Below are positions 28,977 to 46,322 of a DNA stretch of 64,000 nucleotides, in pieces. Numbering within the stretch: the stretch's first letter is position 1; each line of letters begins with the position of its first letter. The DNA is from Lachnospiraceae bacterium (lineage in GTDB: Bacteria; Bacillota; Clostridia; Lachnospirales; Lachnospiraceae). The position numbers were made by a program, and so were the translations under genes. The stretch covers positions 8,130 through 72,129 of the forward strand of contig JAFZQN010000080.1 of NCBI GenBank assembly GCA_017620375.1, given 5' to 3'. The notes below the pieces were generated by a model, which was not told the origin of the DNA, made no database searches, and worked only from the letters and a program-made list of their open reading frames with translations.

Positions 28977-29464
28977 TGATTTTCGTTACAGTAGGTTCTC
29001 AAAAATTTCAGTTCAACAGACTTTTAAAAAAGATAGATGAACTGATAGATGAAGGTGTTATCACAGAAGAAGTGTTTGCTCAGACGGGTGCGAGTGACTA
29101 TATTCCCAAAAACTATTCTTATGAACCGTTTTTGGACAGGGAGACATTTGCTCAAAAGATATCTGAATGTGATAAGGTAATAACTCATGGTGGTACCGGA
29201 GTTATAATCGGTTCGGTAAAAAAAGGGAAAAAGGTGCTTGCTACACCAAGATATGCTAAGTACGGCGAGCACGTAGATGACCATCAGCTACAACTTTTAC
29301 AGCAGTTTGATGACTTAGGGATCATAATAGCTTGTTATGATCTGGATAAACTTGGAGATAAGTATAAAGAGCTTTGTACTGCGAAACTGAATCCTTATAC
29401 TTCAAATACCCATGAATTAATTGATTCTATCGAGGACTTTATAAAGAGTAACATTAAGGAGTAA
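28976..29464 (+). CDS. Alg13-like catalytic subunit (Glyco_tran_28 C-terminal type; PssE/Cps14G-like)
   Basis: 162 aa with 'MIFVTVGSQKFQFNRL' and 'ITHGGTGVIIG'. Its start overlaps the preceding stop. Confidence 0.65.
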   Translation: MIFVTVGSQKFQFNRLLKKIDELIDEGVITEEVFAQTGASDYIPKNYSYEPFLDRETFAQKISECDKVITHGGTGVIIGSVKKGKKVLATPRYAKYGEHVDDHQLQLLQQFDDLGIIIACYDLDKLGDKYKELCTAKLNPYTSNTHELIDSIEDFIKSNIKE

Positions 29465-29470
29465 AGTTTT

Positions 29471-30256
29471 ATGCCCGGTAAAGCAAGACGCGTTATCCGA
29501 AAATATTATGAGTATCTTACCACAAAGGTAAAATTGGTTTTTAGCCAGAAAAAGTTTAAAAGCGGAGACGTTACGCTGAAATATATATTGAAGAAGAACC
29601 CGGAGTCAAAGGATCTTGTGGTCGTTTTTTCTTCCTGTACCAGAAGAGGTATCAAGGCAAGATATAATTATATGCGTACTTTGGCAAAAGTAAATGCAAA
29701 CAAGCTTTTTATCCTGGATGATTTTGCGACAGATCACAGGGGATCATATTATCTTGGGTACGACCAGACTTATTCTGAGGAAAAAGCTACTATCGAGCTG
29801 ATAAATTATGTTAAAAAAAATCTGGAAATTGATAAACTTATATGTTGCGGATCCAGCAAGGGAGGGTATTCTTCCATAAATTTTGGACTGCAGTATGAGG
29901 ACAGTTATATAATAGCAGGCGGGCCGCAGTACTACCTTGGACAATACCTGGTTGCATCACAAAACACAGAGTGTTTGGAGCATATTGTCGGTAACATAAC
30001 TGATGAAAAAGTTAAAAAACTTGATACAAGGTTAAAAGAACGCATAGAAAGTAAAAAATGCGGAAATAAACAAAAGATATATATGCATTTTTCTGATAAA
30101 GAACATACATATTCGGAGCATATAAAAGATCTGCTAGAGTGTCTTAAAGAAAATGAATATAACGTGGAATGCGATATAGCTGATTATACAAATCATTCAG
30201 ATATCAGTTATTATTTTCCTGATTATCTGACAAATACGATAAAACAGATACTGTAA
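29471..30256 (+). CDS. Alpha/beta-hydrolase-fold protein (GxSxG), possible polysaccharide esterase/acyltransferase
   Basis: 'LICCGSSKGGYSSINFG' nucleophile elbow. Loosely Asp2-like. Confidence 0.35.
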   Translation: MPGKARRVIRKYYEYLTTKVKLVFSQKKFKSGDVTLKYILKKNPESKDLVVVFSSCTRRGIKARYNYMRTLAKVNANKLFILDDFATDHRGSYYLGYDQTYSEEKATIELINYVKKNLEIDKLICCGSSKGGYSSINFGLQYEDSYIIAGGPQYYLGQYLVASQNTECLEHIVGNITDEKVKKLDTRLKERIESKKCGNKQKIYMHFSDKEHTYSEHIKDLLECLKENEYNVECDIADYTNHSDISYYFPDYLTNTIKQIL

Positions 30257-30279
30257 AAATTTTTAAGGAGGGAAACGCT

Positions 30280-31665
30280 TTGGAAAACCAGGCAAAAGCA
30301 GTAAAGGTTGAAGAAATAAAAAAGCATTATGATGCCCTTCTTGATAAACCTGAATTACAAGGATTAAAGCTTCTATTTGGAATCAATATGTTCCTTCTGA
30401 TCGCCCTGATAGTTATGCCACAATATTTCGGTATACATTTAGGGTATGATATAACATGTTCTCGTTTTTCGAATATTCTTTTGATCATATATGCATTACT
30501 CCAGTATAGAGTATTGAATCTGTTTATTAAGAACTTCTTAAAATGTTCTATTACAATTCCTCTTATGATATATCTGTTTGTAACTATTTATACCATGATA
30601 TATCGTATTAATATCAATGCGTTTATGCTTGTTTTTTTTGAGCTGTTAACTATGTATATGCTCATTTTTGCTATCAGATATGTAATTGGGATCAGAAAAA
30701 CAATTAAAATAATCATTGGATGCTCATACTTCCTGGGAGTATATGGCTTTGTCGAATTTGTAGCCGGACACTCATTAATGCTTCAGTTTTTAAGTACTGT
30801 TCCTAATAATGTAAAGAATTGTTATAGATCCGGCTATTACAGAATAATGGGACCTTGTGGGCATCCCTTAGGATATGGACTATTATTAGTATTACTAATT
30901 GCTATCGCATGTTATGATTATAAGAAGGAAGAGATATTTCTATATAAACGACCATTTTTGTTGTTTATTCTGATAGCAAATGTTTTTTTGACAGGTTCAA
31001 GATCATCCCAGGGTATTGCGCTTGTAGAAGTATTTATAATAATGCTTTTGAGCAATAGGAAAAATTTTAAGAAAACCATTTTCTATTCTTTATTGCTTTT
31101 GGGAGGCATGGCTTTTTTCTTAGCATTAACTTATAAAACAAAAATTGGTAATTATCTTTTAATGCAGATTACGGTTTTGGTTGATCATGTATTAGGGACG
31201 GAGATTTCGGTTAATTTTGGGGCAGATATAACAACACTTCAAAACAGTGAAGGATATAGAGAGTATCTTCCATTGATCTTCAAATTGGACTGGTTGAATC
31301 CGCTTATCGGAAGAGGCGTTCAAAAAACATTTGGTGCTGAGGTTGTTGGATCTAATGGTGAGATAGTTTATATTGGCTCTGTTGATAATTACTACATAGT
31401 TCAATATATAAAATATGCTTATCCAGGTATGGTTAGTTATTTGATGTATATTGTTACGTGTATTATCACCATGGTCAGAAACGTCTTTAAAAACAGATCA
31501 GAGCTCACGAAAATATTACTGATCAGTTTTTGTTGTTATTACATTAATTTGTGGTGGGTAGATTCTATACAGACACTGAAATTTATATATTTATTTGTTG
31601 CTTTATTTTTTGCTGAAGCATTTTGGAAAAAAGACAGGGACAAGGCAGAAAAACAAATAAAATAG
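30280..31665 (+). CDS. Wzy-type polymerase / O-antigen-ligase-like polytopic membrane protein
   Basis: 461 aa with many TM helices. TTG start with RBS AAGGAGGG 7 nt upstream. Confidence 0.6.
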   Translation: MENQAKAVKVEEIKKHYDALLDKPELQGLKLLFGINMFLLIALIVMPQYFGIHLGYDITCSRFSNILLIIYALLQYRVLNLFIKNFLKCSITIPLMIYLFVTIYTMIYRININAFMLVFFELLTMYMLIFAIRYVIGIRKTIKIIIGCSYFLGVYGFVEFVAGHSLMLQFLSTVPNNVKNCYRSGYYRIMGPCGHPLGYGLLLVLLIAIACYDYKKEEIFLYKRPFLLFILIANVFLTGSRSSQGIALVEVFIIMLLSNRKNFKKTIFYSLLLLGGMAFFLALTYKTKIGNYLLMQITVLVDHVLGTEISVNFGADITTLQNSEGYREYLPLIFKLDWLNPLIGRGVQKTFGAEVVGSNGEIVYIGSVDNYYIVQYIKYAYPGMVSYLMYIVTCIITMVRNVFKNRSELTKILLISFCCYYINLWWVDSIQTLKFIYLFVALFFAEAFWKKDRDKAEKQIK

Positions 31666-31684
31666 ATTAAGAGGATTATACGGA

Positions 31685-32581
31685 ATGAGTGAATTGACAT
31701 TGAAGCAGACGACCAATGTTGAGGACATAAGGGGAATAAGTCCAGACAAAGGTAATAAAATACCTAAAATAATACATTATTGCTGGTTTGGTGGAAAGCC
31801 GTTACCTAAAGAATTAGAGGAATGTCTTAAAACATGGGATAAACTTAAAGATTATACTGTAATGAGATGGGATGAGACTAATTGCAGTTTTGATGAGAAT
31901 GAGTTTATCAAACAGGCCAATAAAGATAAACAATTATGTTTTATATGTGATTATTATCGTCTTAAAGCATTGTATGAGTATGGTGGAATATATTTTGATA
32001 CTGATGTAAAGGTGTACAAGAGTTTTGACCCGTTACTCCATCATAATGTTTTTTTGAATTTTAACTATGACTGTTGTGTAGGAACAGCTATTATTGCTGC
32101 TCAAAAAGGAGATTCTTTGATAAAGAGTCTGATAGATATGTATGATAATACAGTTATTTGTTCCCAAAATAAAAAAGGAAAGAACTTTTATTGGGAAGAT
32201 GGAAAACTATACACAAAAGGTTATTTTACAAATAATTATTATTTTACATATTATATTTTAAAACACTATCCGAATTTTAAACTGAATAATAAATATCAGG
32301 ATATGGGAGATTTTGTTATATATCCAAAAGAAAAATTTGAAATCGGTTCAATATTTGGAAAATATTATGCTATACATATTAATGCTGGTGCTTGGAGAAA
32401 AAAGTATAAAGGGTCTGGTGAAGATAATAAGATAAAAAACTTACTAAAAAAATTTCCCAGGTTGTATGATTATATACAAATAATAGTTAGGAAGCGCAGA
32501 TATAAAGTATTAAATAAAAAAATCCCATTTTATCAATACTCTCTGGCTCAAAAAAAAGGAATACAAATCCCGGAATTATAA
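31685..32581 (+). CDS. GT32-like glycosyltransferase (DXD-containing)
   Basis: 'IPKIIHYCWFGGKPLP' and 'GGIYFDTDV'. Confidence 0.65.
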   Translation: MSELTLKQTTNVEDIRGISPDKGNKIPKIIHYCWFGGKPLPKELEECLKTWDKLKDYTVMRWDETNCSFDENEFIKQANKDKQLCFICDYYRLKALYEYGGIYFDTDVKVYKSFDPLLHHNVFLNFNYDCCVGTAIIAAQKGDSLIKSLIDMYDNTVICSQNKKGKNFYWEDGKLYTKGYFTNNYYFTYYILKHYPNFKLNNKYQDMGDFVIYPKEKFEIGSIFGKYYAIHINAGAWRKKYKGSGEDNKIKNLLKKFPRLYDYIQIIVRKRRYKVLNKKIPFYQYSLAQKKGIQIPEL

Positions 32582-32619
32582 AGAAATTCGCAAAGGGATA
32601 TCAGAGTTGAGGTTTTATT

Positions 32620-33780
32620 ATGAAAATAGTATTACTTGGGTTAGAATTTGCCAATCCCAATCTGGGTTGTCAGGCTTTAGCATATTCTTTTATAGAGATA
32701 ATTGAAGAAGTTGCAAAGCGGAACAATATTGAATGTGAATACATGTCCGTAGTTTTTTACCAGTTTGACCCCATTAAATTATATGATTCAAATAGTAGAA
32801 TTACCAGTAAAAAAATAAACTATAAAAGCTTAAAGTTTTGGAGTAGCTTAAAGAAAGACTTTAAGAAGAGTGATCTGATCGTAGATTTTACAGGGGGAGA
32901 CAGTTTCTCTGATATCTATGGAAACAAAAGATTTCGTCTTGCAACTTTGGTAAAGTATTACGCTGTAAGATCTAAAACACCTTTGTTATTAGGACCGCAA
33001 ACATATGGGCCTTTCAAATCAAAACTAAATCAAAAGTTTGCCGGATATATAATAAAAAAGGCGAAATGGGTATTTGCAAGAGATTTAGCTTCTGAAAAAC
33101 TCGCAAAAGAGATATCCGGCAGAGACGTGGATGTAAGTGTAGATGTTGCTTTTAGTCTGCCTTATAAAAAAGCAGAACTTAAAAAGACAGATAAGATACG
33201 TGTTGGTATCAATGTGTCCGGATTCCTTTGGGAGGGAGGATATGCAAATATCAACAATCCCATTAAAGTTGAGTATAGAAAATACTGCCATCAACTGATA
33301 GAGTATCTAAATGCGCACGATAAATATCAGATTTATCTGATTCCACACGTCGGCACTACAAGTACAGAGGGTATCGAAAATGATCTTGCAGCTTGTTTGA
33401 GATTAAAAGAAGAGTATCCCGACACTATTGTTGTAAAAGATATAAAAACTCCAATGGATGCTAAGGGTATTATTTCTGCCATGGATATTTTTATCGGAGC
33501 GAGAATGCATGCTACGATAGCGGCAATTTCAACAGGCGTAGCAACTATTCCGTTTTCATATAGCAGGAAGTTTGAGGGATTGTTTAGTTTTCTTAATTAT
33601 CCGTATGTGGTTTCAGGGACAACAGATACTACTGAAAAAGCAATAAATACAACTGTTAAGTGGATAGAGAACATAGGGGAGGTTAAGCTTTCTGCTGAAA
33701 AAAGTCAAGAAATAATACAGACTAAGAAAAAAGAATTTTTAAATACAGTCTCAATAATACTAAATGAAATCTGCAAGTAA
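32620..33780 (+). CDS. Polysaccharide pyruvyl transferase (WcaK/CsaB family)
   Basis: 386 aa with 'GGDSFSDIYG' and 'IGARMHATIAA'. Confidence 0.7.
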   Translation: MKIVLLGLEFANPNLGCQALAYSFIEIIEEVAKRNNIECEYMSVVFYQFDPIKLYDSNSRITSKKINYKSLKFWSSLKKDFKKSDLIVDFTGGDSFSDIYGNKRFRLATLVKYYAVRSKTPLLLGPQTYGPFKSKLNQKFAGYIIKKAKWVFARDLASEKLAKEISGRDVDVSVDVAFSLPYKKAELKKTDKIRVGINVSGFLWEGGYANINNPIKVEYRKYCHQLIEYLNAHDKYQIYLIPHVGTTSTEGIENDLAACLRLKEEYPDTIVVKDIKTPMDAKGIISAMDIFIGARMHATIAAISTGVATIPFSYSRKFEGLFSFLNYPYVVSGTTDTTEKAINTTVKWIENIGEVKLSAEKSQEIIQTKKKEFLNTVSIILNEICK

Positions 33781-33811
33781 AGATAACGGGTATAAAAAGG
33801 AATGAGATATA

Positions 33812-34990
33812 ATGAATGTGACAAATGCAGTAGGTAAAATGTGTATAGGATGTGGATTATGTCATTCAGAATATGGGGTGGAGTTTAAACACAATGATAA
33901 AGGGTACTTAGTATTAAATGACACACTATCTTTAGAATGTCAGCGTTTTATTGAACAAGTTTGTCCTATTATGGGTGGGGCTTATACTGATAATTCTCAC
34001 AAAGATATTTGGGGAGAACGTATAGGTATTTATGAAGGTTTTTCAAATAATAGGGATATCAGAAAAAAAGCTTCCAGTGCCGGAATTGTAACAACTATAG
34101 GGCTCTATTTATTGGATAAAGGGTTGATAGATGGAGTTATCCATATAGGTGTTGACGAAAAAACAGTGTATAAAACTAAGACGATTGTCTCATATGACAA
34201 GAAAAACATAATTGAGAACTGCGGCTCAAGATATTGTATTTCTTCGCCATGGTATGATTTAAAAGAAATTATCGACCCCGAAAAGAAATATATGGCGGTT
34301 GGAAAGCCGTGTGATATTACTGCTTTGAAACATGCAAAAGAAAAATTTCATCTGTATGAAAACATAATTTATTTAGTTTCATTCTTCTGTGCGGGACTTC
34401 CCAGTGACAGTGCTAACAGAAATTTGTTACGAGAATTGGGTTGTAAAGAGGCAGATTGTACAGATCTTCGATATAGGGGAAATGGTTGGCCGGGATATAC
34501 TACGGCAACGGACAAAGAAGGAAAAAAGTATAAACTTGAATACAGTAAAGCCTGGGGAGGTATTTTGGGAAGAGATGTACATAAATTTTGTCGCCTTTGT
34601 ATAGACGGAATTGGACTAAACTCGGATATAGTATGTGGGGATTTATGGTATTTAGATAATGATAGCCCTGATTTTTCTGAACGAGAAGGTAGAAATATTA
34701 TTATTTCCAGAACGTATACAGGCGATGCTTTGTTAAAACAAATAACAGAAGATGGATACATAACATGTAGAGAATGGAACAATCTTGAAGATTTAAAAAA
34801 GATACAAAAGCACCAGTATACACGACGGGCTACGATGAAGGCAAAAATGCTTGCCAACAAGATTTTCTTTCGGACAGTACCTAATTATAATAAAAAAATG
34901 ATATCAGAATATTCTAAAATGATACCGTTTTCTGAAAGACGAAAAGTGTTTTTGGGGACTATAAAAAGAATTATCAGGAAAAAATATTAA
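33812..34990 (+). CDS. Coenzyme F420 hydrogenase/dehydrogenase beta-subunit-like Fe-S protein (FrhB family)
   Basis: 392 aa with an N-terminal 'CIGCGLCHS' cluster motif. This family is commonly paired with pyruvyl transferases in EPS loci. Confidence 0.6.
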   Translation: MNVTNAVGKMCIGCGLCHSEYGVEFKHNDKGYLVLNDTLSLECQRFIEQVCPIMGGAYTDNSHKDIWGERIGIYEGFSNNRDIRKKASSAGIVTTIGLYLLDKGLIDGVIHIGVDEKTVYKTKTIVSYDKKNIIENCGSRYCISSPWYDLKEIIDPEKKYMAVGKPCDITALKHAKEKFHLYENIIYLVSFFCAGLPSDSANRNLLRELGCKEADCTDLRYRGNGWPGYTTATDKEGKKYKLEYSKAWGGILGRDVHKFCRLCIDGIGLNSDIVCGDLWYLDNDSPDFSEREGRNIIISRTYTGDALLKQITEDGYITCREWNNLEDLKKIQKHQYTRRATMKAKMLANKIFFRTVPNYNKKMISEYSKMIPFSERRKVFLGTIKRIIRKKY

Positions 34991-35009
34991 ACAGGAAATA
35001 TTTGATACA

Positions 35010-36440
35010 ATGAATACGGAAAAAGCAAAAGGCCCGGGCAAAGTAGCAAAAGCCGGAGCGGGTTATGTTATTGGTAATTATTTACTTAAGGGTATCACCT
35101 TTTTGTCAGCCCCTATATTTACCAGACTTCTTACAACGGCTGATTTCGGTTTGTACAGTACATATACGGCTTATTGGTCTATTTTTTATATTATATTAGG
35201 CTTGGCCTTACATTCAAGTATAGCTACTGCAAAATATAAATATAGTGGAAAACTGGAGAGCTTTATTTCGTCAATAATACTATTGATGTTATTTAGCACT
35301 TGTGTATGGACTGTGCTTGGCAACCTTTTCTTTAAAGCGTTTGAAGAATGGTTTGGTTTTGACAGGGTTATTTTAAATTGTTTAATTTTGCACTCATTGG
35401 GAGATGCACTGATTCAGGTTTTCACAAGTTATGTGAGCTTGAATTATAGCGTGAAAACCTTTTTTAAGATGTCAGCATTTAATGCGATTTTTAATTTGCT
35501 GGGATCTATCGTTTTGATCATTACCGTATTTAGTGAGGAGCGTTATATTGGACGAATAATAGGCTCATTTATTCCTATGGGTACTATAGGGTTGTTTATT
35601 ATTATATATTTCTTTAGAAAGGCCCGACCCAAGTATAATGGAGAATATTGGAAATTTTCGCTTAAATATAGTCTTCCCATAATACCACACGGAATAGCCC
35701 AGGTCATTCTTGGAACATTTGATCGTATCATGATTAAAAATATGGTTAGTCCGGATGCAGCGGGATTATACAGTTTTGCATATACCGTTAGCACTTTGTT
35801 TACGGTGGCATCAGCATCTTTAGATAAAGTTTGGCGACCCTGGGGTTATGAAAAGATGCATGAAAAAGACTATGAGGCCATGAAGGATCGGGCAAATAAA
35901 TATGCATTTGGGATGGCTGTGTTCGCCGCAATGATAATTATGGTTTCGCCGGAAATAATAAAAGTACTGGGAGATAGAGACTATTGGGAATCAACATCCT
36001 GCGTGATTCCGGTTATTATAGGTGCATACTTTATTTTTCTGTACAGTTTACCGGCCTTGGTTGAATTTGTCCATGAAAAAACAGGATTTATTGCTATAGG
36101 TTCAGTAAGTGCTGCAGTCATAAATATTATTCTTAATTATATTTTTATTCCTATATTTGGTTATGTTGCTGCCGCATATACCACTATGATAACTTATGGG
36201 ATGTCTTGCATCTTTCATTATATTATCGCAGTTAAAGTTCAAGGATTTTCTATTTATGATACAAAAAAATTAATAATTATATCTTTAATGCTGGGATTAC
36301 TAGGGGGATGCGCCCTATTACTGGAGAACCAGTGGTATATCAGATGGTTGTTGGAAATTTTGCTTATTATAGGAGCCTATTTCTGGGCAGACCGTAATTT
36401 TGGTGTACGAGATTTTATTAGAAAAAAATTAAATCGATAA
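35010..36440 (+). CDS. Wzx-type oligosaccharide flippase (MOP superfamily)
   Basis: 476-aa polytopic protein. Confidence 0.7.
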   Translation: MNTEKAKGPGKVAKAGAGYVIGNYLLKGITFLSAPIFTRLLTTADFGLYSTYTAYWSIFYIILGLALHSSIATAKYKYSGKLESFISSIILLMLFSTCVWTVLGNLFFKAFEEWFGFDRVILNCLILHSLGDALIQVFTSYVSLNYSVKTFFKMSAFNAIFNLLGSIVLIITVFSEERYIGRIIGSFIPMGTIGLFIIIYFFRKARPKYNGEYWKFSLKYSLPIIPHGIAQVILGTFDRIMIKNMVSPDAAGLYSFAYTVSTLFTVASASLDKVWRPWGYEKMHEKDYEAMKDRANKYAFGMAVFAAMIIMVSPEIIKVLGDRDYWESTSCVIPVIIGAYFIFLYSLPALVEFVHEKTGFIAIGSVSAAVINIILNYIFIPIFGYVAAAYTTMITYGMSCIFHYIIAVKVQGFSIYDTKKLIIISLMLGLLGGCALLLENQWYIRWLLEILLIIGAYFWADRNFGVRDFIRKKLNR

Positions 36441-36476
36441 TTTATAGATAGAGGGTTACATTAAGGGGATAGGTTG

Positions 36477-37433
36477 ATGAAGGAAAAAATAAGTGTTGTT
36501 GTAGCTGCATACAATGTGGAAAAGTATTTGAAACAGTGCATTGATAGTATATTGGCTCAGACTTACCCTGCTTTTGAGATAATATTAATAGATGATGGTT
36601 CTGTTGATAGTACAGGAAAGATCTGTGATCAATATGCTTCAGATAATCCGCAGATAAAAGTAATCCATCAGAAAAATCAAGGTGTATCTGCAGCTAGAAA
36701 TGCAGGCATTGAGTATGCTCAAGGAGACTACATTTCAGTTATAGATAGTGACGATTATTTAAAAACTGATATGTATGAAAAGTTAATAAAGGGTATTGTT
36801 CAAAATGATGCAGATATTATAGTTTGTAATTATGACAAGGTATCTGAAGATGGAAAAACTATTATAATGGATGATAAATACGCTCGTGATGAGTGCGTTT
36901 CTTCTAGGGAAGCATTACGATGGTTTGAGCGTGAACATTCATGGACATATACTTTTCCATGGAATAAGTTGTACAAACGAGAGCTTTTTAAAGACACAAA
37001 ATATCCTGTTGGAAAAAAATTTGAAGATGATTTTATCATCCATAGACTTTTTATGAACAGCAATAAGATTGCATCTATAAGCGATTCTTTGTATTGTTAC
37101 AGAGATAATCCGACCAGCATTATGAGAACGCTAAAATATAAAATGGATAGGATTGACGATTTTGATGCAGTCTATGACAGATATTGTATATATGTTAATA
37201 AAGGTTATTCAGAATTATATAGGGGAACAATAGAAAGAGCAAAATATACTCTGCAATATGTCAATAAGTTTGATGTGTCAACGGAAGAAGATAAAAAGCG
37301 TATAGACAATATGATCAACTGCTTTAAGCAAATGGTAAAGAGTGCCGGAAAAAATGCAGGATTGCTAAATAAGATTATTGCACTTTCACCGAGGACATAT
37401 TATAGGATCAGAGGATTAATTAAAAGAAGATAA
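36477..37433 (+). CDS. Family 2 glycosyltransferase
   Basis: 'ISVVVAAYNVEKYLKQCIDSILAQTYPAFEIILIDDGSVD'. ATG at 36477 preferred over the track's TTG at 36474. Confidence 0.85.
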   Translation: MKEKISVVVAAYNVEKYLKQCIDSILAQTYPAFEIILIDDGSVDSTGKICDQYASDNPQIKVIHQKNQGVSAARNAGIEYAQGDYISVIDSDDYLKTDMYEKLIKGIVQNDADIIVCNYDKVSEDGKTIIMDDKYARDECVSSREALRWFEREHSWTYTFPWNKLYKRELFKDTKYPVGKKFEDDFIIHRLFMNSNKIASISDSLYCYRDNPTSIMRTLKYKMDRIDDFDAVYDRYCIYVNKGYSELYRGTIERAKYTLQYVNKFDVSTEEDKKRIDNMINCFKQMVKSAGKNAGLLNKIIALSPRTYYRIRGLIKRR

Positions 37434-37445
37434 TGGTGGGGGATT

Positions 37446-38618
37446 ATGACGACTATACAGAATTATTTGGCTGAACTTGTTCTTGCTCAACTAAATGGCA
37501 GGAAACCGGTAAATATTCCTGAAAACATAACTACTGATGAAATAATCGACATTGCCGGACGTAATCATATGATTTATCCTCTTTTAGGTGCGTTGATAAA
37601 GACGGATAATGTTCCTGAGGAGAAGGTAAACGATCTGCGCTTTAAAATTCAGAATAGTATATTAATGACATTGGCACAGGTAACTGAACTAAATATACTT
37701 GTAACCGCCCTTGAAAATGCCGGGATCAAGAACCAGCCCATGAAAGGGTCATGCATGAAGTTTATGTATCCATCTCCTGAACTACGAGAAATGAGTGATA
37801 TTGATATCCTTATAGCCGGAGAACAGATGGATGCTGCAGGTAAGGTTATGCTTGAACTGGGATACACCCTTGCGCAGTCGATCAAGCATCATGATATTTA
37901 TATGAAAAAACCGTTTATGGTTGTTGAAATACATCGTGCAATGTACGATAAGACAGTTGACGGTAATCAGTTTGATTATTTTAAGAGTTTTGAAAAGGCT
38001 GTTTTACGAGAAGGAAAAAAGTATACATATGACTTTAATAAAGAAGATTTTTATGTATATATGATCGCACACATGGCAAAACATTTTTATGCTATGGGGT
38101 GTGGTATACGTAATCTTTTAGATGTATATATTTATTTAGAAAAATATGGAAAGGAATTAGATCGTTCTTATCTTGATAGAGAATTAAAAAAATGCGGCAT
38201 TTATGATTTCGCGGTTAATGTAGAGGAACTGGCTTATATCTGGCTCGGTGGAAAAAAGGGCAGTCAATTCTATGATGACCTGTTTCAATATATGGTTGAC
38301 TGCGGTATATATGGTAAAGACGAGAATGGAATATGGCATAAATTTGCAGAAGAAAAGCTTGATGGTAAAGAGGTTACACGAGGAAAGCTTAAAAAATGGT
38401 ACTATTTTCCGCCGCTTTTTTATATGGCAGAGTACTATCCGTGGCTTGAAAAGTTTCCTTTCCTGCTCCCTGTAGCATGGTGTATTCGTGCATTTCGAGG
38501 TATATTTATGAAGAAGGGTATACAAAAAAGAGAAATGTTGAATGTGATAGATGGAGATAAGGCGAAAACATACCAAAATATTTATAAACAGATGAAACTA
38601 AAGTTTAAACATAAATAA
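37446..38618 (+). CDS. Nucleotidyltransferase-fold protein (NTP_transf_5 type) typical of Firmicutes lasso clusters
   Basis: 390 aa with 'MKGSCMKFMYPSPELREMSDIDILI'. Starts 12 nt after the GT2 stop. Confidence 0.7.
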   Translation: MTTIQNYLAELVLAQLNGRKPVNIPENITTDEIIDIAGRNHMIYPLLGALIKTDNVPEEKVNDLRFKIQNSILMTLAQVTELNILVTALENAGIKNQPMKGSCMKFMYPSPELREMSDIDILIAGEQMDAAGKVMLELGYTLAQSIKHHDIYMKKPFMVVEIHRAMYDKTVDGNQFDYFKSFEKAVLREGKKYTYDFNKEDFYVYMIAHMAKHFYAMGCGIRNLLDVYIYLEKYGKELDRSYLDRELKKCGIYDFAVNVEELAYIWLGGKKGSQFYDDLFQYMVDCGIYGKDENGIWHKFAEEKLDGKEVTRGKLKKWYYFPPLFYMAEYYPWLEKFPFLLPVAWCIRAFRGIFMKKGIQKREMLNVIDGDKAKTYQNIYKQMKLKFKHK

Positions 38619-38632: not shown

Positions 38633-39121
38633 ATGGCTAACGAATCAGATAATACTGAAGCAAAAAAAGGTTTTTGGTATAATTGTATATTAGCAAGAGG
38701 ATTCAGGTTTATAAAGTATAACAAAGCCAAGAAGCTTACTGCGCGTGCGATTTTTCTTTCAGCGTATTACAGACTATGCATATTGTTGGTAAAACCCAAG
38801 AAACTTCATAAACGATGGGGTGTGGAAGGTGAAGAGACAAGTATGGATGATGTAATGCCCTGGCAGTACAGATATTCTTACTGGGTTTCCTATGCAGTTG
38901 ATAAGGTGTGTTCAAGGACAGCCTGGGAGAGTAAATGTCTTGTGCGTGCTCTTACTGCCCAGCATCTGTTAAAAAAGAAAGGAATTCCTTCCACTATGTA
39001 CCTTGGGTGTAAAATGGAAGAAGGAAAGATGGTAGCCCATGCTTGGCTTAGGGTAGGAAAATATTATGTTACCGGGGGAAATGGAGAAGGGTATTCTATT
39101 GTTGACCGGTTCCGTACATAA
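38633..39121 (+). CDS. Lasso peptide leader peptidase B2 (transglutaminase-like Cys protease)
   Basis: 162 aa with 'WESKCLVRALTAQHLL' (Cys) and 'VAHAWLRVG' (His). Confidence 0.8.
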   Translation: MANESDNTEAKKGFWYNCILARGFRFIKYNKAKKLTARAIFLSAYYRLCILLVKPKKLHKRWGVEGEETSMDDVMPWQYRYSYWVSYAVDKVCSRTAWESKCLVRALTAQHLLKKKGIPSTMYLGCKMEEGKMVAHAWLRVGKYYVTGGNGEGYSIVDRFRT

Positions 39122-39148: not shown

Positions 39149-40957
39149 ATGTCTGCTATATGGGGAGTTGTTGATTTTAACGGAAAAGCCATAGGAAATG
39201 ATATAAAAGAAAAAATGAAAGAGAGTTTTTCCGAATGTAAGATTGATAAGGTGCAAGATATACATAAGGATAATTATTATCTGGCAACAGGTATCCAGAA
39301 TATTGTAGAAGAGGCTCAATTGGAACAGTTTCCCTATACATATATTGATGGCAAAGTGATGGTAGCGGATGCTATAATAGACAATCGTACCGAAATGCTT
39401 ACGGAGTTTAAACTTAAAAATGAACTAAGTTTGAAAGAAATAGATGGAAGTATACTATATGAGTCAGTTGCTGGAAACTTAAGACAATCATTGGAAAAAC
39501 TATGTGGGGCATTTGCATTTGTAGAATATGATGAAAATGAGAAGACGATTTATGTAGCAAATGATGTTGTTGGAACCAGATCCATATATTATTCCTTTTG
39601 TAACGGACGCTTCGTTTTTTCTTCACTTATAAAAACAATCCTTCCCTTTATGCCGACTGTAGAAGTGGAAGAAAAATGGCTCTCACAGTTTATCGACAAT
39701 GACAACTTGTTAATAGTAGACAGTCCTTCGGCCACTCCATATAAAGAAATATATCGTTTAGAGCCCGGAGAATTGCTAATTATAAAAAAAGCAGGGGTAG
39801 AGCATATAGCTTATTGGGATCCGCGGAAAAAAGTTAAGAATTTAAAACTGAAAACCGATGAAGGATATAAAGCTCTTGTTTTGGATACTTTTAAAAAATG
39901 TGTAGAATCAGTTATTCGTACTCCGGGAGAAATTGGAATACTTTTAAGTGGAGGGTTGGATTCTAACGCAGTAGCAGCATATGCTGCACCGTTTTTAAAA
40001 AAAGCCGGAAAAAGACTTTTATCGTATACTTCTGTTCCAAATGATAAGATTGAACCAATTCCCAAGCGATCATATTACGTAAGCAATGAGAGGATTTATA
40101 TAGAAAAATTAAGAGAATACCATTCAAATCTGGAACCACACTTTATTGACGTCTCAAAGATAGATGTAATGAAGGACTTTGAGATAGTTTCCGAAATGAT
40201 TGAATCGCCAGTAAAAACAGTTGTAAATATGTCTTGGATATATGAATTGGTAAAACAGGCAGAATCGGATGGCTGTAAGATCCTTTTGGGAGGTCAATAC
40301 GGTAATATAACGATATCCTACGGATTTCTATATAACCTTTTTGCCACATATAAATATTCTGGTAGATTTATAAAACTGATAAAAGCTGTTAACACATATG
40401 GAAAAAAATATAAAAGAAACAGAAAAAGAGTGCTGAAATATGCATTACAAATAGAGAAAGTGCATTCCTTAAAAAAAGGAAGAACAAAGATGTATGACAA
40501 GGAGGCATTACGTCAAACCGGAGAGACGGAAATGCATGAATCCTTGGCATCAGGTCTGATATTCAGAGATCCCACCAGGGACCGAAGGCTTATTGAACTA
40601 GTGCTTTCTCTTCCTATCAAATGTTTTGTTGATGCTGAAACTGACCGAAGAATGGTTAGAGTATATATGAAAGATATAATTCCGGATATTATATGCTCCG
40701 ACCAATTTCATCGTGGATCTCAAGGGACTTCAGGATTTGATCAGATAAGAAATGACTGGGAAACAATAAAAAGTGATCTTATCCGGAAATATGGTCTTGC
40801 TTCCGGGAAAAAGTATCTGTCAAAAATGAATCTTTGTGAATGGATCGAGAAGATAGACGAAAAAGATAAATCTAATGAATTTAATTTGATGAAGGCTATT
40901 TATCTGGGTTATTTGTGCCAGTATCTTGAAAAAATGAATTCAACTGAAAAGAAGTAA
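39149..40957 (+). CDS. Asparagine-synthetase-like lasso cyclase (C protein), module 2
   Basis: 602 aa with 'MSAIWGV' (no Cys2) and PP-loop 'LLSGGLDSNA'. Confidence 0.85.
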   Translation: MSAIWGVVDFNGKAIGNDIKEKMKESFSECKIDKVQDIHKDNYYLATGIQNIVEEAQLEQFPYTYIDGKVMVADAIIDNRTEMLTEFKLKNELSLKEIDGSILYESVAGNLRQSLEKLCGAFAFVEYDENEKTIYVANDVVGTRSIYYSFCNGRFVFSSLIKTILPFMPTVEVEEKWLSQFIDNDNLLIVDSPSATPYKEIYRLEPGELLIIKKAGVEHIAYWDPRKKVKNLKLKTDEGYKALVLDTFKKCVESVIRTPGEIGILLSGGLDSNAVAAYAAPFLKKAGKRLLSYTSVPNDKIEPIPKRSYYVSNERIYIEKLREYHSNLEPHFIDVSKIDVMKDFEIVSEMIESPVKTVVNMSWIYELVKQAESDGCKILLGGQYGNITISYGFLYNLFATYKYSGRFIKLIKAVNTYGKKYKRNRKRVLKYALQIEKVHSLKKGRTKMYDKEALRQTGETEMHESLASGLIFRDPTRDRRLIELVLSLPIKCFVDAETDRRMVRVYMKDIIPDIICSDQFHRGSQGTSGFDQIRNDWETIKSDLIRKYGLASGKKYLSKMNLCEWIEKIDEKDKSNEFNLMKAIYLGYLCQYLEKMNSTEKK

Positions 40958-40986: not shown

Positions 40987-41910
40987 ATGAAAAAATATCG
41001 TTATAAAATATATGGTCTTATAGTTGAATCTGAATTGGAAATAGCACAAGCAACATCACTTTCAGTTGATAGGAAATCTTTAGAAAATGATGTTGAAATA
41101 GTATTTGGTGAAATACCCGAAAGATTAAGAAAAGCAGGAGAAGAAGGGTATGGATCATGGATCAACGGGTTTAAGGCTGCATGGTTTAATACGAAAGGTA
41201 CGGCACAATACCTTATTACCGGAGGAAATAAGATCGTAGTCCGTCCTTATCCTGATCCGGATGAAAAGTTGATGGTCTCAATGATACTCAGCGCAGGAAT
41301 GTCATTGATCCTTCTTCAAAGAAATGAGCCTGTTTTTCATGGAAGCGTTATAGAAAAAGAAGGATATGCATATATAATATCAGGTACCAGTGGAGCCGGA
41401 AAATCAACAGTAACTATGGAACTGTTAAAAGACAATGCTTGGCTGTTTATGGCTGATGATACCGTGCGATTGTCATTGGATAATGGGAAAATTCATTGTT
41501 ATCCAACATATCCACAACAAAAAGTATGTCGTGATCTGGCCTGCCGCATGGGGCTTGACTTAAGCGATATGATTTATATCGATGAGGGAAGAGATAAATT
41601 TGCATACAAAAGAACGGACAGATATTATGATCATACTGCAGAGCTGAAGAGTATATATATAATTAACAAAAGTAAAAATGTCTGTGAAGTAAAATATGAG
41701 AAATTACAGGGAATGGATTATGTTCATGCGTTTATAAATAACTTGTACCTTTCGGATAATTATAAACGAGATACGGGAGTTCCGAATGAATTTATGAAAC
41801 TGATAAATCTATTATTTCATCAGGCAGATATTTATCTTATTACTCGCCCTGAAGAAGGGGATACCGTAAAAAATGTTGTAGATACAATAAGATTCTTACA
41901 AAGTTGTTAG
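40987..41910 (+). CDS. HPr-kinase-like kinase (PadeK-type), module 2
   Basis: 307 aa with 'YKIYG', 'FHGSVIEKEGYAYIISGTSGAGKSTVT' and 'YPTYPQQKVC'. Confidence 0.8.
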   Translation: MKKYRYKIYGLIVESELEIAQATSLSVDRKSLENDVEIVFGEIPERLRKAGEEGYGSWINGFKAAWFNTKGTAQYLITGGNKIVVRPYPDPDEKLMVSMILSAGMSLILLQRNEPVFHGSVIEKEGYAYIISGTSGAGKSTVTMELLKDNAWLFMADDTVRLSLDNGKIHCYPTYPQQKVCRDLACRMGLDLSDMIYIDEGRDKFAYKRTDRYYDHTAELKSIYIINKSKNVCEVKYEKLQGMDYVHAFINNLYLSDNYKRDTGVPNEFMKLINLLFHQADIYLITRPEEGDTVKNVVDTIRFLQSC

Positions 41911-41997: not shown

Positions 41998-42183
41998 ATG
42001 AAGACATGGACAAGTCCTGTAGTAGAAGAACTTGATGTTAAGGTTACTGAGTATGATCCCAATGGTGGTACTAGACCCGATGCATTTCTTAAAGATGAGC
42101 ATACAGGAGAAATAACAAAGTACTTATATGGACCTTCTGCAGGAGATGCAGGTGATCCTACAATTGTTGGTACAGAGGCATAA
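41998..42183 (+). CDS. Lasso-type precursor peptide P3 (61 aa)
   Basis: MKTWTSPVVEELDVKVTEYDPNGGTRPDAFLKDEH...IVGTEA. RBS AAGGAGG. Confidence 0.75.
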   Translation: MKTWTSPVVEELDVKVTEYDPNGGTRPDAFLKDEHTGEITKYLYGPSAGDAGDPTIVGTEA

Positions 42184-42205: not shown

Positions 42206-42394
42206 ATGAAGAAGTGGGAAAACCCTGAGATGGTTAAACTTAACATTAATATGACAGCATATGGTGATGATACAAGTAAGGAGCCTGATTGGACTATTTA
42301 TTCAATCGGCGGAGATAAGATTCTTGATCAGACATTTGGACCTTCAGGATCAGAACATCCTGCAGATGCTGTTGTTAAACAGACACAGCCTTAA
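42206..42394 (+). CDS. Lasso-type precursor peptide P4 (62 aa)
   Basis: MKKWENPEMVKLNINMTAYGDDTSKEPDW...VVKQTQP. This is an internal ATG of the 88-aa track ORF, with RBS GGAGG 5 nt upstream. Confidence 0.75.
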   Translation: MKKWENPEMVKLNINMTAYGDDTSKEPDWTIYSIGGDKILDQTFGPSGSEHPADAVVKQTQP

Positions 42395-42412: not shown

Positions 42413-42452
42413 GAAAAGAATCCGAAGTTTTTACTTCGGATTTTCTTTTGTT
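42413..42452 (+). terminator. Rho-independent terminator after the precursors and before B1/exporter
   Basis: gaaaagaatccgaagt-tttt-acttcggattttcttt followed by TGTTT. Confidence 0.75.
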
Positions 42453-42517
42453 TGCATTTATACTTTATATATGATAAAATAACCTAGAATATGTATTAAT
42501 ATTTTGGGAGGTTTACG

Positions 42518-42781
42518 ATGGACAAAGATACAAAAATAGTATTAAAAAAGAAACTTAATGTTACAGATCTTGCCGGTGAGAAGGTAATGGTAGATTTTGA
42601 TAGTGGTAAGTATTTCCTTATTAAGGGTGTCGGAAACGATATATGGGAGATGATCCAGAATGAAATTACCCCCAACGAGATAATAGACAAACTGCTTTCT
42701 GAGTACGATGTAAACAGGGAGGAATGTGAGAAGTCTGTTATGGAATTCCTTAAGAAAATGGAAGGCTATAATTTTATTTAA
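42518..42781 (+). CDS. PqqD-family leader-recognition protein (lasso B1 / RRE)
   Basis: 87 aa with 'VTDLAGEKVMVDFDSGKYFLIKGVGNDIWEMI...EECEKSVMEFLKKM'. Confidence 0.8.
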   Translation: MDKDTKIVLKKKLNVTDLAGEKVMVDFDSGKYFLIKGVGNDIWEMIQNEITPNEIIDKLLSEYDVNREECEKSVMEFLKKMEGYNFI

Positions 42782-42793: not shown

Positions 42794-44473
42794 ATGGGAA
42801 AACTGAAAGAAGCATGGAAAGACAGGGATAACCAATATAAATATGCTAAATGGCTGATGAAGTATTCTAAGCCATATATGGGTCGTATTACACTTATGAT
42901 GGCGTTTAGCATTATTTCAACGGTGGTCTCTCTATGGATGGTGCAGATATCCAAAAATATTATAGATAATGCTACCGGTGGCAATAAGTTTGTCACTCTG
43001 CTTATTGTATATTTTTGTTTAATGATCGCTATGCAAGTAGTGGGTATAGTATCTACACTATTATCAGCGATACTTAGTGAGAAATTCTCATTTGGTATTA
43101 GGAAGCAGATATATGATAAGATTATCAGATCGCATTGGATGGATGTAAAGAGGTATCATACGGGCGATCTTATGACCAGGCTTACCAGCGATGCAGGAGC
43201 TATAGCAGATGGTATCATTGGAACAATACCCAATATCATAATCTTGTTTGTAGAACTGTTGATGGTGTTTGTTACATTATTTATTTATTCACCGTTACTT
43301 GCAGTATTTGCAATGCTTGTTGCACCTGTTGCGGCTTTGGTATCCTTCTTCCTGGGAAAGAAGCTGAAAAAGCTGCAAATAAAGGTTCAGGAATCGGAAT
43401 CTAATTATCGCTCATTCCTTCAGGAAAGTTTGGCAAATCTTCTCGTGGTAAAATCATTTGCAAATGAGGACTATTCTGTTGACAGGCTTACTACTCTTAG
43501 AGAAGAACGTTTCAAATGGGTCTTTAAAAAGACCAAGATGAGTATAGCCAGTAGTACTGTGATGTCTATGACATTTCAGCTGGGATATATTGTAGCCTTT
43601 GCCTATGGAGCATGGCAGATTTCTACCGGACAGATCACATATGGTACCATGACGGTGTTTCTTACTTTGGTAAACAGGGTACAAAGTCCGATAATCGGTT
43701 TGGCGCAACAGATTCCGAGAGTAGTATCGGTACTAGCTTCAGCGGGACGAGTTATAGAGTTACAGAATATTCCCGTAGAGGAACGTTTACCGGAAGTAGT
43801 GACCTCTGACAAGATCGGTGTGGATATAGAAAATCTTACTTTTGGATATACAGATGAGATCGTACTTGATAATGTGTCCTTAAATATCAAGCCGGGTGAA
43901 TTTGTTGCAATTATCGGTGAATCCGGCATAGGAAAAACTACTTTGCTGCGTATTATTATGTCTTTCATGGGTAATTATACAGGAAAAGTGGACTTCTTTG
44001 ATGAGAATGGGTTAACGGACCCTGCAAATGCCAATACAAGAAGATTTATATCGTATGTACCTCAGGGTAATACCTTATTCAGCGGTACAGTCAGAGAAAA
44101 CATACGCATGGGTAAACTTGATGCTACGGATGAAGAAATGTGGGATGCATTGAAGCTTTCCGCAGGATATGACTTTGTCAAGGAGTTACCTAACGGTCTT
44201 TATACTGTCATAGGTGAGAGAGGACATGGTATCTCGGAAGGTCAGGCACAGCGTATAGCTATAGCGAGAGCTTTTGTACGAAAAGCTCCGCTGCTTATCC
44301 TGGATGAAGCTACATCTGCTCTTGATGAGAATACTGAGAAGGAAGTAATAAAAGGTCTTCAGCAGCTTGAGCCGCGTCCGACCTGTATAGTTGTTACTCA
44401 TAGAAAGAGTATACTTACTTATTGTGACCGAGAGATCAAGATTGAGAACAAAAACATGGAAGAGATACAGTAA
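42794..44473 (+). CDS. ABC exporter, fused TMD-NBD (McjD-like lasso export/immunity candidate)
   Basis: 559 aa with Walker A 'GESGIGKTTL', signature 'ISEGQAQRIAIARA' and Walker B 'LLILDEATS'. No C39 peptidase domain. Confidence 0.85.
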   Translation: MGKLKEAWKDRDNQYKYAKWLMKYSKPYMGRITLMMAFSIISTVVSLWMVQISKNIIDNATGGNKFVTLLIVYFCLMIAMQVVGIVSTLLSAILSEKFSFGIRKQIYDKIIRSHWMDVKRYHTGDLMTRLTSDAGAIADGIIGTIPNIIILFVELLMVFVTLFIYSPLLAVFAMLVAPVAALVSFFLGKKLKKLQIKVQESESNYRSFLQESLANLLVVKSFANEDYSVDRLTTLREERFKWVFKKTKMSIASSTVMSMTFQLGYIVAFAYGAWQISTGQITYGTMTVFLTLVNRVQSPIIGLAQQIPRVVSVLASAGRVIELQNIPVEERLPEVVTSDKIGVDIENLTFGYTDEIVLDNVSLNIKPGEFVAIIGESGIGKTTLLRIIMSFMGNYTGKVDFFDENGLTDPANANTRRFISYVPQGNTLFSGTVRENIRMGKLDATDEEMWDALKLSAGYDFVKELPNGLYTVIGERGHGISEGQAQRIAIARAFVRKAPLLILDEATSALDENTEKEVIKGLQQLEPRPTCIVVTHRKSILTYCDREIKIENKNMEEIQ

Positions 44474-45320
44474 ATGTAGTGCCTTGACCTAAAGTACTTT
44501 CGGCATTTATAGTTCCTCCGTGCCGTTCCACTATAGCGCGTGCGATGGAAAGACCGAGACCGCTGCCGGAGGTTTCTCCGGGGGTACGGGCATTTGAAAC
44601 AGTATATGTTCTGGTAAATATATGGGGTAGTGCTTCGGGCGCTATCCCATTTCCATTATCAGATACGGATATTATAAGTTGTGCGCTGGAAGGTGAAAAA
44701 ACACTAGGATTCTCTACGTTATTCTTAGAACTAGGTTTATAGATATGAGCACTAAGTCGAATGTAGGTTGCCTTTTCTCCGGCATATTTAGCTGCGTTTG
44801 TAAGTAAATTATCAAGGACGCGTACGATTTTCTGTGGTTCGATATTTATAACGCAGTTTAAATCTGCAGGGACGTCCAGTAGCATGTCAAACCGGTCATA
44901 TCGGGAATCTATGATAGCATCATAGTAGTATTCTTCCAGAAATGTACAGGCATCAACAGATTGAATCTTTAATGGACGGGCTTCATCTTCGACATTGAAA
45001 AGATAATACATATCGTTGATGAGTTCCTCTAAAGAGGATGTACGTCTGTCAATAAGCGAAAAAAGTTTCCTGCTTTCATCAATGGAAAGATTATCGGAGG
45101 TCAATGCCAAATCTATTGCACTGCGGATGGCAGTGATCGGAGCTCTTAAGTCATGAGAGATATTGGCAAGCATCATTTCTCTTTCTTTCTGGAGAGTCCG
45201 GAGCCTGGAATGAGCCTCTAACAATTCACTTGTCAATTCTTCTACGGATTTTGTTTCAAGGTTTGGTGATTGGAAAGCTTTGCTCATTTTTCGTATCATG
45301 CCGCAGACATGCTTACACAT
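44436..45320 (-). CDS. Histidine kinase core (DHp + HATPase) without recognisable sensor or TM region
   Basis: 294 aa with H-box 'ISHDLRAPITAI', 'DNGNGI' and 'GSGLGLSIA'. No RBS at the ATG at 45320. The 3' end overlaps the convergent exporter gene by 38 nt. Confidence 0.65.
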   Translation of the reverse strand: MCKHVCGMIRKMSKAFQSPNLETKSVEELTSELLEAHSRLRTLQKEREMMLANISHDLRAPITAIRSAIDLALTSDNLSIDESRKLFSLIDRRTSSLEELINDMYYLFNVEDEARPLKIQSVDACTFLEEYYYDAIIDSRYDRFDMLLDVPADLNCVINIEPQKIVRVLDNLLTNAAKYAGEKATYIRLSAHIYKPSSKNNVENPSVFSPSSAQLIISVSDNGNGIAPEALPHIFTRTYTVSNARTPGETSGSGLGLSIARAIVERHGGTINAESTLGQGTTFTVSLPCFCSQS

Positions 45321-45402
45321 CGGGGTCGTGCCTGGAGCGACACCGATGGAAGTTTGAAAATGTAACTCTCAAACTTTATCTCCTAAGAAAAAACAGTATG
45401 GC

Positions 45403-46286: not shown

Positions 46287-46322
46287 CTGCGATCAATTAT
46301 TTTTCTTAAGAAACAACTTATA

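Follow-up and report, generated by a model that had tools for sequence, protein, structure and literature searches.

What does it mean that the genes for a lasso peptide follow those for a surface polysaccharide as if both belonged to one operon? The question is raised by a stretch of 64,000 nucleotides (the window) from a gut/rumen Lachnospiraceae bacterium (assembly GCA_017620375.1, contig JAFZQN010000080.1, positions 8,130 to 72,129), in which a Wzx/Wzy-type exopolysaccharide (EPS) operon runs straight into the genes for N, a nucleotidyltransferase-fold protein, and B2, a lasso leader peptidase. We find that the locus is one composite unit inherited by Lachnospiraceae. The peptide and the sugar coat are probably made together, and they may also be chemically joined. 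Our statements on function rest on sequence, synteny and two published systems from Bacilli, and that the peptides are glycosylated or linked to the glycan is purely our inference.

The junction and the genes on either side of it

The last glycosyltransferase (GT) gene of the operon, a GT2 member at 36477-37433 on the + strand (PF00535, 153 bits), has its ATG at 36477, in agreement with the gene call in locus L001, and its stop at 37431-37433. The ATG of N follows at 37446, and the 12 nt between them (37434-37445, TGGTGGGGGATT) contain a ribosome-binding site (GGTGGGGG) and no hairpin. A terminator scan of the junction found no terminator-like site, and the fold of the 81-nt junction RNA (-7.8 kcal/mol, z -0.5) is no better than that of shuffled sequences. 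The initial annotation had placed N 12 nt past the last GT2 stop with no terminator in between, and sequence and scan bear this out. Equally sound was its picture of a one-strand array from 18317 to 44473 with short or overlapping joins: the open reading frame (ORF) list and the gap table give 26 consecutive genes on the + strand, the count comprising the series in the six-frame ORF list plus two short precursor genes. The intergenic gaps span -4 to 123 nt (in order 12, -4, 23, -1, 20, 81, 43, 11, 11, -1, 6, 23, 19, 38, 31, 19, 33, 12, 14, 27, 29, 87, 22, 123 and 12 nt). The first hairpin in this array to resemble an intrinsic terminator, a 12-bp stem with a T run (-18.8 kcal/mol, z -4.64), comes at 42417-42444 (+), directly after the second precursor gene. 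With the two genes on the same strand, a short gap and no terminator between them, a single transcript would be expected to cross the seam between GT2 and N. A candidate operon promoter at 18183-18212 (+; TTAGCA-18-TATAAT with a TG extension) comes from a consensus scan and is a lead rather than a mapped start, as promoter-like matches in this AT-rich DNA are not more frequent than in shuffles (93 versus 78.7 +/- 8.3).

Read by Pfam, the region 18317-37433 encodes a Wzx/Wzy-type polysaccharide pathway. Its upstream block (18317-31665, +; Pfam, NCBIfam) comprises a priming phosphoglycosyl transferase (PF02397, 239.8 bits), a GT2, a GT4, two further GT2 proteins, a leucine-rich repeat (LRR) surface protein, a CpsD-like ATPase, a CARDB protein, a Wzz-like protein, an Alg14/Alg13 split GT, an Asp2/CpsF-like protein and a Wzy-like protein (30280-31665). 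The variable glycan cassette beyond it (31685-37433, +; Pfam) comprises a DXD sugar-binding GT, a pyruvyl transferase, an FrhB-like protein, a Wzx flippase (35010-36440; PF01943, 73.6 bits) and the last GT2. The GT complement of the array is thus four GT2, one GT4, the split Alg14/Alg13 pair and one DXD GT. The Wzy-, Wzz- and CpsD-like matches fall just under their cut-offs (PF04932, 26.4 bits against 31.7; PF02706, 21.9 against 25.5; PF13614, 26.1 against 27), and the order of these three genes is conserved across loci. Two flippases had initially been counted in the array: the Wzx at 35010-36440 holds, the other candidate is the Wzy-like protein, and a second flippase-like gene lies outside, at 49677-51206.

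Three of these proteins show further features. The conserved Wzy-like protein carries a Wzy_C domain (below cut-off), which is also found in O-antigen ligases and in PglL/WsaB-type protein O-oligosaccharyltransferases, and it could in principle move glycan onto a peptide serine outside the cell. Mid-operon, within 23827-27778, the 713-aa LRR protein has a hydrophobic segment at its N-terminus, a Pro-rich stretch that resembles extensin, and LRRs of the BspA type, and the CARDB-domain protein has hydrophobic segments at both ends; the positions of both are conserved in related loci.

On the other side of the junction, and again on the + strand, lies the lasso module (module B). It opens with N (37446-38618), a PF14907 protein of the PsmN/LppN family (159.2 bits, cut-off 31.2), and the transglutaminase-like leader peptidase B2 (38633-39121; NF033537, lasso_biosyn_B2, 71 bits against a cut-off of 33, and PF13471). 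There follow a variable cassette of an asparagine-synthetase-like cyclase C (39149-40957; PF00733, 66.6 bits against a cut-off of 21, and PF13537), an HPr-kinase-like (HPrK-like) peptide kinase K (40987-41910) and the precursors A1 (41998-42183, 61 aa) and A2 (42206-42394, 62 aa; also a gene call in L001), and then B1, a PqqD-like recognition element (RRE) for peptides made on the ribosome and modified after translation (RiPPs; 42518-42781; PF05402, 62.1 bits), and the ABC exporter D (42794-44473; PF00664, PF00005). The kinase scores below the PF07475 cut-off (28.4 against 33.3 bits) and matches TIGR04352/TIGR00679 weakly (E about 1e-7), in the P-loop region only; its homologues recur beside cyclases in related loci. 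A macrolactam synthetase C with a separate B2 peptidase and a separate B1 is the split-B lasso arrangement, and the mature product is predicted to be a lasso, i.e. a threaded lariat. We also considered the kinase and N as parts of a linear polyphosphorylated peptide (LPP) cluster, which is defined by a SipW-like archaeal-type signal peptidase I beside an RRE, a kinase, a nucleoside triphosphate (NTP) transferase and an exporter (PMC13381572). This reading was rejected, as no SipW-like peptidase, nor any other signal-peptidase family, was matched among the scanned ORFs of the 13-52 kb island (smaller or unscanned ORFs being outside that scope).

Conserved and variable parts of the locus

Six close relatives allow the junction to be placed within the architecture of the locus: L004, the closest species representative, and L083, L085, L087, L088 and L089, which were found by exact-protein look-up and have an N 75-89% identical to that of the window. 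In L004, the identities are 87% for N, 93% for B2, 93% for B1, 96% for D and 95% for the response regulator next to D, and on the glycan side 87% for the flippase x1 at 49677-51206, 97% for Alg14, 93% for Alg13 and 93% for the gene E12; they are 27% for the cyclase, 26% for the kinase and 34% for the GT upstream of N. C is likewise only 27-33% identical to its counterparts in most related loci. At the DNA level, homology to the six is patchy over 19717-23815 and continuous from about 24460 (26049 in L004, 24918 in L083, fragmented in L089) to about 31650, the end of the Wzy-like gene, or to 32579 in L085 and L087, which share the first slot gene (gtS). It restarts at 37427-37444 in L004, L083 and L088, within about 20 nt of the junction, and at 37455-37539 in L089, L085 and L087, 9-93 nt inside N. 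It then ends at 39105-39112, at the end of B2, restarts at 42433-42518 just before B1, spans D and the two-component system to 46096-46183, skips 46184-49597 (a further cassette, module C) and restarts at the flippase. These break points recur in all six comparisons. The slot between the Wzy-like gene and N, which holds five genes in the window, holds from zero to five GT genes across the relatives: a GT2-GT4 fusion and a GT2 in L004 and L083, a DXD GT and a GT2 in L085 and L087, a single GT4 in L089 and none in L088.

The locus thus has a conserved backbone of N, B2, B1, D, the two-component system and the flippase, and two slots that vary among close relatives, one between Wzy and N for GTs and the other between B2 and B1 for cyclase-kinase-precursor cassettes. 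By the DNA comparisons, the GT2/N junction is a recurrent mosaic boundary, and N-B2 a conserved island of 1.7 kb between the variable GT slot and the variable cyclase-kinase-precursor cassette.

Beyond the lasso genes, at 49677-51848 (+), lie x1, a polytopic Wzx-like flippase, and x2, a small membrane protein. x1 has about 12 transmembrane (TM)-like segments and a weak match to NF041503; its orthologues match PF01943, and in several relatives it is the only flippase within 10 kb either side of N. In L085, L087 and L089 the flippase is followed by a GT2-GT4 fusion gene, on the same strand in L085 and L089 and on the opposite one in L087. As a flippase, and in relatives also GTs, lie beyond the lasso genes, the lasso module is nested in the polysaccharide locus rather than appended to it. 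The initial annotation had described it as fused to the 3' end of the EPS operon; the direct continuation at N stands, whereas the terminal position does not, given the flippase beyond the lasso genes and another cassette abutting the operon start.

For a wider view, one genome per GTDB species was scanned with the N alignment, which returned 79 loci, 69 of them of Lachnospiraceae type. The sample consists of N-containing loci, and the counts refer to these. Most are contigs of metagenome-assembled genomes with 10 kb flanks, so that an absent cyclase or kinase may reflect the length of flank; ORFs were labelled by phmmer against the window's own proteins and called from the first start codon, so that some gaps appear negative. 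Among the 50 loci with at least 8 kb upstream of N, at least three same-strand EPS homologues precede it in 43 and at least five in 34, and a same-strand gene ends at most 120 nt before N in 54 of 58 loci (median gap 18 nt). B2 directly follows N in 38/65 loci and a flippase does so in 12/65. The 42 fully flanked loci include B2 in 37 cases, cyclase, kinase and D in 30 each and B1 in 27, and four of them lack any lasso gene. The order EPS > N > B2 is found in Acetatifactor, Waltera, Agathobacter, Roseburia, Lachnospira, Blautia and Anaeromicropila, with the identity of N falling to about 40%, and cultured carriers include Lachnospira multipara ATCC 19207 and LB2003, L. pectinoschiza M83, Waltera spp., Blautia celeris NSJ-34 and Anaeromicropila herbilytica TB5. 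The only Butyrivibrio locus (L060) has N among lasso genes, and no same-strand EPS gene immediately before it. The initial annotation had named synteny as a check on its reading, and a juxtaposition unique to this strain as an outcome that would sink it; the check comes out strongly positive, and a juxtaposition confined to this strain is excluded. An arrangement that recurs in dozens of species-level genomes is more than chance.

Two further features of the related loci stand apart from the window. Most genes immediately before N received no label from phmmer, and 64 of them were scanned against Pfam; in 32/64 loci the gene encodes a CotH-kinase-domain protein (e.g. L058:7735-9987, also L012, L022, L034-L073 and others), as a rule together with CHB_HEX_C_1 and Fn3_assoc domains. 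Of the fully flanked loci, 39/42 have at least one of the two kinases, HPrK-like or CotH. The window itself has no CotH gene, and the CotH association therefore does not explain its junction. In L005 (9298-12924), L006 and L007, N, B2, B1 and the exporter are kept with a DXD GT in place of the cyclase-kinase-precursor cassette; the surrounding 10 kb contain neither a cyclase nor a kinase nor a precursor, and N is preceded by two small membrane proteins.

The synteny bears directly on the alternative of a chance or recent juxtaposition, in which a mobile lasso cluster would have landed, in this strain, downstream of an EPS operon to which it bore no relation. The block from 13000 to 52000 is indeed a low-GC island (GC 0.35-0.37, third-codon-position GC (GC3) 0.30-0.32) relative to its flanks, with purE and other purine-biosynthesis genes (GC3 0.49) on one side and a two-component system/PSP1/holB region on the other, and module C is inserted relative to the close relatives. 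Against this, the codon usage of the EPS genes is as near to that of lasso module B (Jensen-Shannon 0.0100) as the two halves of the EPS genes are to each other (0.0105), both sets being at 0.076-0.088 from the core flanks; there is no compositional seam at the junction; and EPS > N > B2 recurs across the seven genera named above. A recent-insertion origin of the lasso module was rejected on codon usage and synteny, and we consider a chance juxtaposition highly improbable. Copies identical to the region are present in metagenome assemblies.

Two further cassettes of precursor, cyclase and kinase genes, both on the - strand, are to be added to the initial annotation. Module A (13381-18067), divergent from the operon start, has two HPrK-like kinases (13571-14365 and 17162-18067), a cyclase (14817-16727) and two precursor-like genes, one (16813-17025) for a peptide with a C-terminal Ser, and the other (13381-13602), overlapping the 3' end of its kinase gene, for a peptide with a YxxP leader and the C-terminus WWFWPWF. 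It lacks B1, B2 and an exporter, and presumably depends on those encoded by the + strand module. Module C (46323-49518; precursor, cyclase and kinase), between the response regulator and the flippase, also lacks its own B1, B2 and D. It is missing in L004 and the other five relatives, in all of which response regulator and flippase are adjacent, so that it is either a recent insertion or has been lost in the relatives; its GC3 is 0.41 versus 0.30-0.32 in the rest of the island. The two-component system itself (44436-46095, -; Pfam) adjoins D and consists of a soluble histidine kinase (44436-45320), with no TM-like segment and no Pfam sensor domain, and an OmpR-type response regulator; the histidine kinase is 82% identical in L004. 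The 3' ends of the convergent histidine kinase and exporter genes overlap by 38 nt. The pair is kept beside the exporter in many loci, several of which then have another priming sugar transferase.

The N enzyme and the link between peptide and glycan

N is a soluble protein with no TM-like segment and with the motif S117-D118-I-D120, of which S-D-x-D is invariant in 17 homologues. The top Foldseek matches of its AlphaFold model (pLDDT 84.5) are ANT(2'')-Ia (5kqj, E 7e-4) and LnuA (4fo1, E 2.8e-3), with FKRP weaker; a profile search of the PDB with N found nothing meaningful and no sequence-level relative, and NCBIfam has no model for it. Thus, N is predicted to have a pol-beta nucleotidyltransferase fold closest to that of ANT(2'') and LnuA. 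In ANT(2''), LnuA and FKRP a carbohydrate hydroxyl attacks a phosphoanhydride, and by analogy N may use the same sugar-hydroxyl chemistry. Its DxD is equivalent to the residues mutated in the inactive PsmN D134A/D136A (PMC6993621). The search for N returned 574 homologues, the few with a source name being from Lachnospiraceae or Acetatifactor, and the Bacilli-type (Paenibacillus) members recovered are about 25-30% identical to N.

The closest functional precedent is PsmN of the pseudomycoidin system, which the initial annotation had recounted accurately as placing hexose on a kinase-installed C-terminal phosphoserine (PMC6993621). Pseudomycoidin acquires one or two hexoses (162/324 Da) on its C-terminal phospho-Ser, and psmN is needed for this (Zyubko et al. 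2019, PMC6993621), although these authors left open whether PsmN itself is the transferase (PMC6993621). By this analogy N is predicted to add a hexose to a kinase-installed peptide phosphate. The chemistry cannot carry over to the window as first stated, because neither precursor has a C-terminal Ser: A1 ends in GTEA and A2 in QTQP.

Where, then, might the phosphate be placed? Lasso precursors are recognised by a [Y/W]xxPx[L/V/I] leader motif, a penultimate leader Thr and an Asp/Glu at core position 7-9. A1 and A2 have WxxP leaders, and W4, P7, T17 and D28 are invariant in nine precursors of their family. D28 sits 11 residues past T17, a spacing that misfits the usual Thr at -2 with a ring of 7-9 residues; it would imply either a Thr at -3 with a 9-residue ring or a Thr at -2 with an unprecedented 10-residue ring. 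The tails of the family are unusually long (about 40 aa) with a recurring x-S-G, i.e. GPSAG in A1, GPSGS in A2 and also GPSSGNSG, and similar motifs (DGSGP, KSGSG, PSGN) are present in the six close relatives, although their precursors differ greatly from those of the window. The internal x-S-G serine is therefore likely, as judged from the motifs, to be a better kinase target in A1 and A2 than a C-terminal Ser. A motif search recovered many precursor-like genes of several families beside cyclase-kinase pairs, and one family, in many related loci, ends in '...LS', so that its last residue is a Ser, like that of paeninodin and pseudomycoidin. Leaders are of the WxxP or WxxA type in the window and in L083-L089, and precursor sequences are hypervariable even among close relatives.

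These elements can be assembled into a functional coupling of peptide and glycan, which is the reading we favour, with confidence a little short of even. N and B2 would be transcribed as the tail of the polysaccharide operon, whereby the peptide-maturation backbone would be made whenever the glycan is made. The HPrK-like kinase would phosphorylate a Ser of the precursor tail, internal in x-S-G here and C-terminal in the '...LS' peptides of related loci. N would then join a sugar hydroxyl to the peptide phosphate as a phosphodiester, a step suggested by its soluble pol-beta fold and by nearest structural relatives that all act on sugar hydroxyls. The sugar or oligosaccharide would be supplied by the surrounding pathway, and the ABC exporter D would release the phosphoglycosylated lasso peptide.

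Several points weigh against such a coupling. AT-rich DNA matches the promoter consensus everywhere, making internal promoters possible. Cyclase and kinase lie on the opposite strand in 6/6 close relatives, and there only N and B2 can share the EPS transcript; the conserved feature is EPS > N > B2 on one strand rather than a 26-gene transcript, full co-direction being particular to the window's cassette. The sole proven acceptor, a C-terminal Ser, is missing from A1 and A2, and the Foldseek matches of N are weak (E about 1e-3, TM-scores of 0.25-0.33 on the query). N occurs with no cyclase or kinase within 10 kb in 11/42 fully flanked loci, and these, with the loci devoid of lasso genes, suggest that it may have a peptide-independent role. 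Finally, PsmN-dependent hexosylation took place in E. coli without EPS genes (PMC6993621), and ordinary sugars may accordingly suffice.

The same E. coli result speaks for co-regulation alone, in which peptide and polysaccharide are needed in the same state (stationary phase, biofilm or competition), the sugars, if any, are ordinary cytoplasmic ones and there is no link to the polymer. We regard this as a real possibility, if a weaker one than the coupling. In Paenibacillus alginolyticus, pbaB1, lppB and one eps gene are induced together in stationary phase, with biofilm as the only role speculated upon (PMC13381572). In the window, a conserved two-component system lies beside D and the precursor genes end in a hairpin of their own, and in relatives the precursors appear to form a separate unit with B1-D. 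What co-regulation leaves unexplained is that N is the invariant neighbour of the glycan cassette, that it occurs in EPS loci with no cyclase or kinase, and that LppN is silent in a host that lacks the surrounding genes: it was inactive in Bacillus subtilis, and its authors propose a partner outside the core cluster (PMC13381572).

The loci without lasso genes raise a further alternative: N could be a polysaccharide gene that adds a phosphodiester-linked substituent to the repeat unit, with the lasso module starting at B2 and the adjacency being historical. L058, with no lasso gene, fits it well, N lying there between a CotH-kinase protein and a flippase (CotH-kinase > N > flippase > GT2-pyruvyltransferase > GH5 > GT2 > GT2), as do the 9/42 fully flanked loci with CotH but no HPrK-like kinase, the 12 loci with a flippase directly after N, and the weak fold likeness to FKRP, a CDP-ribitol phosphotransferase that acts on glycans. 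It is nevertheless at odds with B2 as the direct successor of N in 38 loci and with the co-variation of N with B2, B1 and D. Two Paenibacillus loci (L078 and L080) with distant PF14907 members have a kinase and exporter nearby and, over 10 kb, nothing homologous to the EPS genes of the window; the psm lasso cluster includes psmN, which acts on the peptide (PMC6993621); and the NTP transferase is ranked as a core RiPP gene by Popov et al. (PMC13381572). We thus hold this alternative to be quite unlikely.

The favoured coupling also has a more far-reaching form, which we consider unlikely, in which the lasso peptide would be tethered to the surface polysaccharide by a phosphodiester to give a peptide-decorated capsule. 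The kinase would here build a mono- or polyphosphate on the tail Ser, the resulting peptidyl-phosphoanhydride would mimic an NTP or a CDP-alcohol, and the hydroxyl of the undecaprenyl-linked repeat unit, or of another locus-specific sugar, would attack it by way of N. If so, the glycan and peptide slots, which vary independently, would jointly define a combinatorial determinant of the surface or of competition.

Relation to known systems

The locus narrows the search for the roles of paeninodin-type lasso peptides and of the PF14907 enzyme: across Lachnospiraceae, N is the fixed hinge between a variable GT slot and a variable peptide slot, and its immediate neighbours are its candidate partner genes. 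A chemical bond between peptide and glycan would make for a new class of conjugate in commensals that abound in gut and rumen; even without such a bond, the locus clearly exemplifies a RiPP pathway that is tied to the expression of the capsule and diversifies alongside it.

Serotype-variable Wzx/Wzy capsule loci of Gram-positive bacteria have a priming transferase, a CpsC/CpsD-like pair, GTs, a polymerase and a flippase, with a variable central GT block between conserved flanks. The window follows the same variable-block plan, but its conserved 3' flank is a RiPP tailoring gene and a leader peptidase in place of housekeeping or sugar-nucleotide genes. On the peptide side, the psm cluster of Bacillus pseudomycoides has the same enzyme set (C, A, K, B1, B2, N and D), and an N with a catalytic DxD and an ANT(2'')-like fold, as inferred by its authors; unlike in the window, psmN lies between psmB2 and psmD, no polysaccharide genes are described, and the acceptor is the C-terminal phospho-Ser (PMC6993621). 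Davasins offer a different precedent, in that a Ser of the mature lasso peptide is glycosylated by a dedicated iterative GT, IgtG (Sun et al. 2025, PMC11912497). This is direct O-glycosylation, and the abstract mentions no kinase, nucleotidyltransferase-fold enzyme or polysaccharide operon.

In rumen Firmicutes (Butyrivibrio, Lachnospira), lasso clusters were reported with kinases in 85%, GTs in 36% (including GT2, and EpsH in Butyrivibrio) and an uncharacterised nucleotidyltransferase in 30% (Sabino et al. 2020, PMC7533575), and a Hungate1000 survey draws the nucleotidyltransferase in such clusters, with polysaccharide genes unmentioned (PMC13289728). These are the same family of organisms and the same type of cluster; the GTs are treated as tailoring or accessory genes, and in the passages searched the complete Wzx/Wzy operon, the seam at N and the cassette mosaic are not described. 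A literature search for lasso peptides with polysaccharide biosynthesis and a nucleotidyltransferase, and for CotH with exopolysaccharide, found nothing relevant.

The nearest parallel is in Bacilli, where paeninodin-like (pba) and LPP clusters are embedded in capsular-polysaccharide loci, e.g. in Paenibacillus alginolyticus DSM5050 (Popov et al. 2026, PMC13381572). These authors count the NTP transferase as a core RiPP gene, state the roles of the peptides to be unknown, and suggest that the neighbouring glycan genes might modify the peptides, with biofilm formation as speculation only (PMC13381572). The window differs in belonging to Lachnospiraceae, i.e. Clostridia, with neither a SipW-type signal peptidase nor an LPP cluster found in the scanned ORFs of the island; in the distance of 12 nt between N and the last GT; in a single N-B2-B1-D backbone that serves several swappable cassettes; and in precursors with WxxP leaders, tails of 40+ aa and no C-terminal Ser. 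Thus, the association of lasso and polysaccharide genes as such is already published for Bacilli (PMC13381572) and partly noted for rumen Firmicutes (PMC7533575). What is new here is its extent and tightness in Lachnospiraceae, the nested layout, the backbone shared by several cassettes, and the finding that the N junction falls on a cassette boundary.

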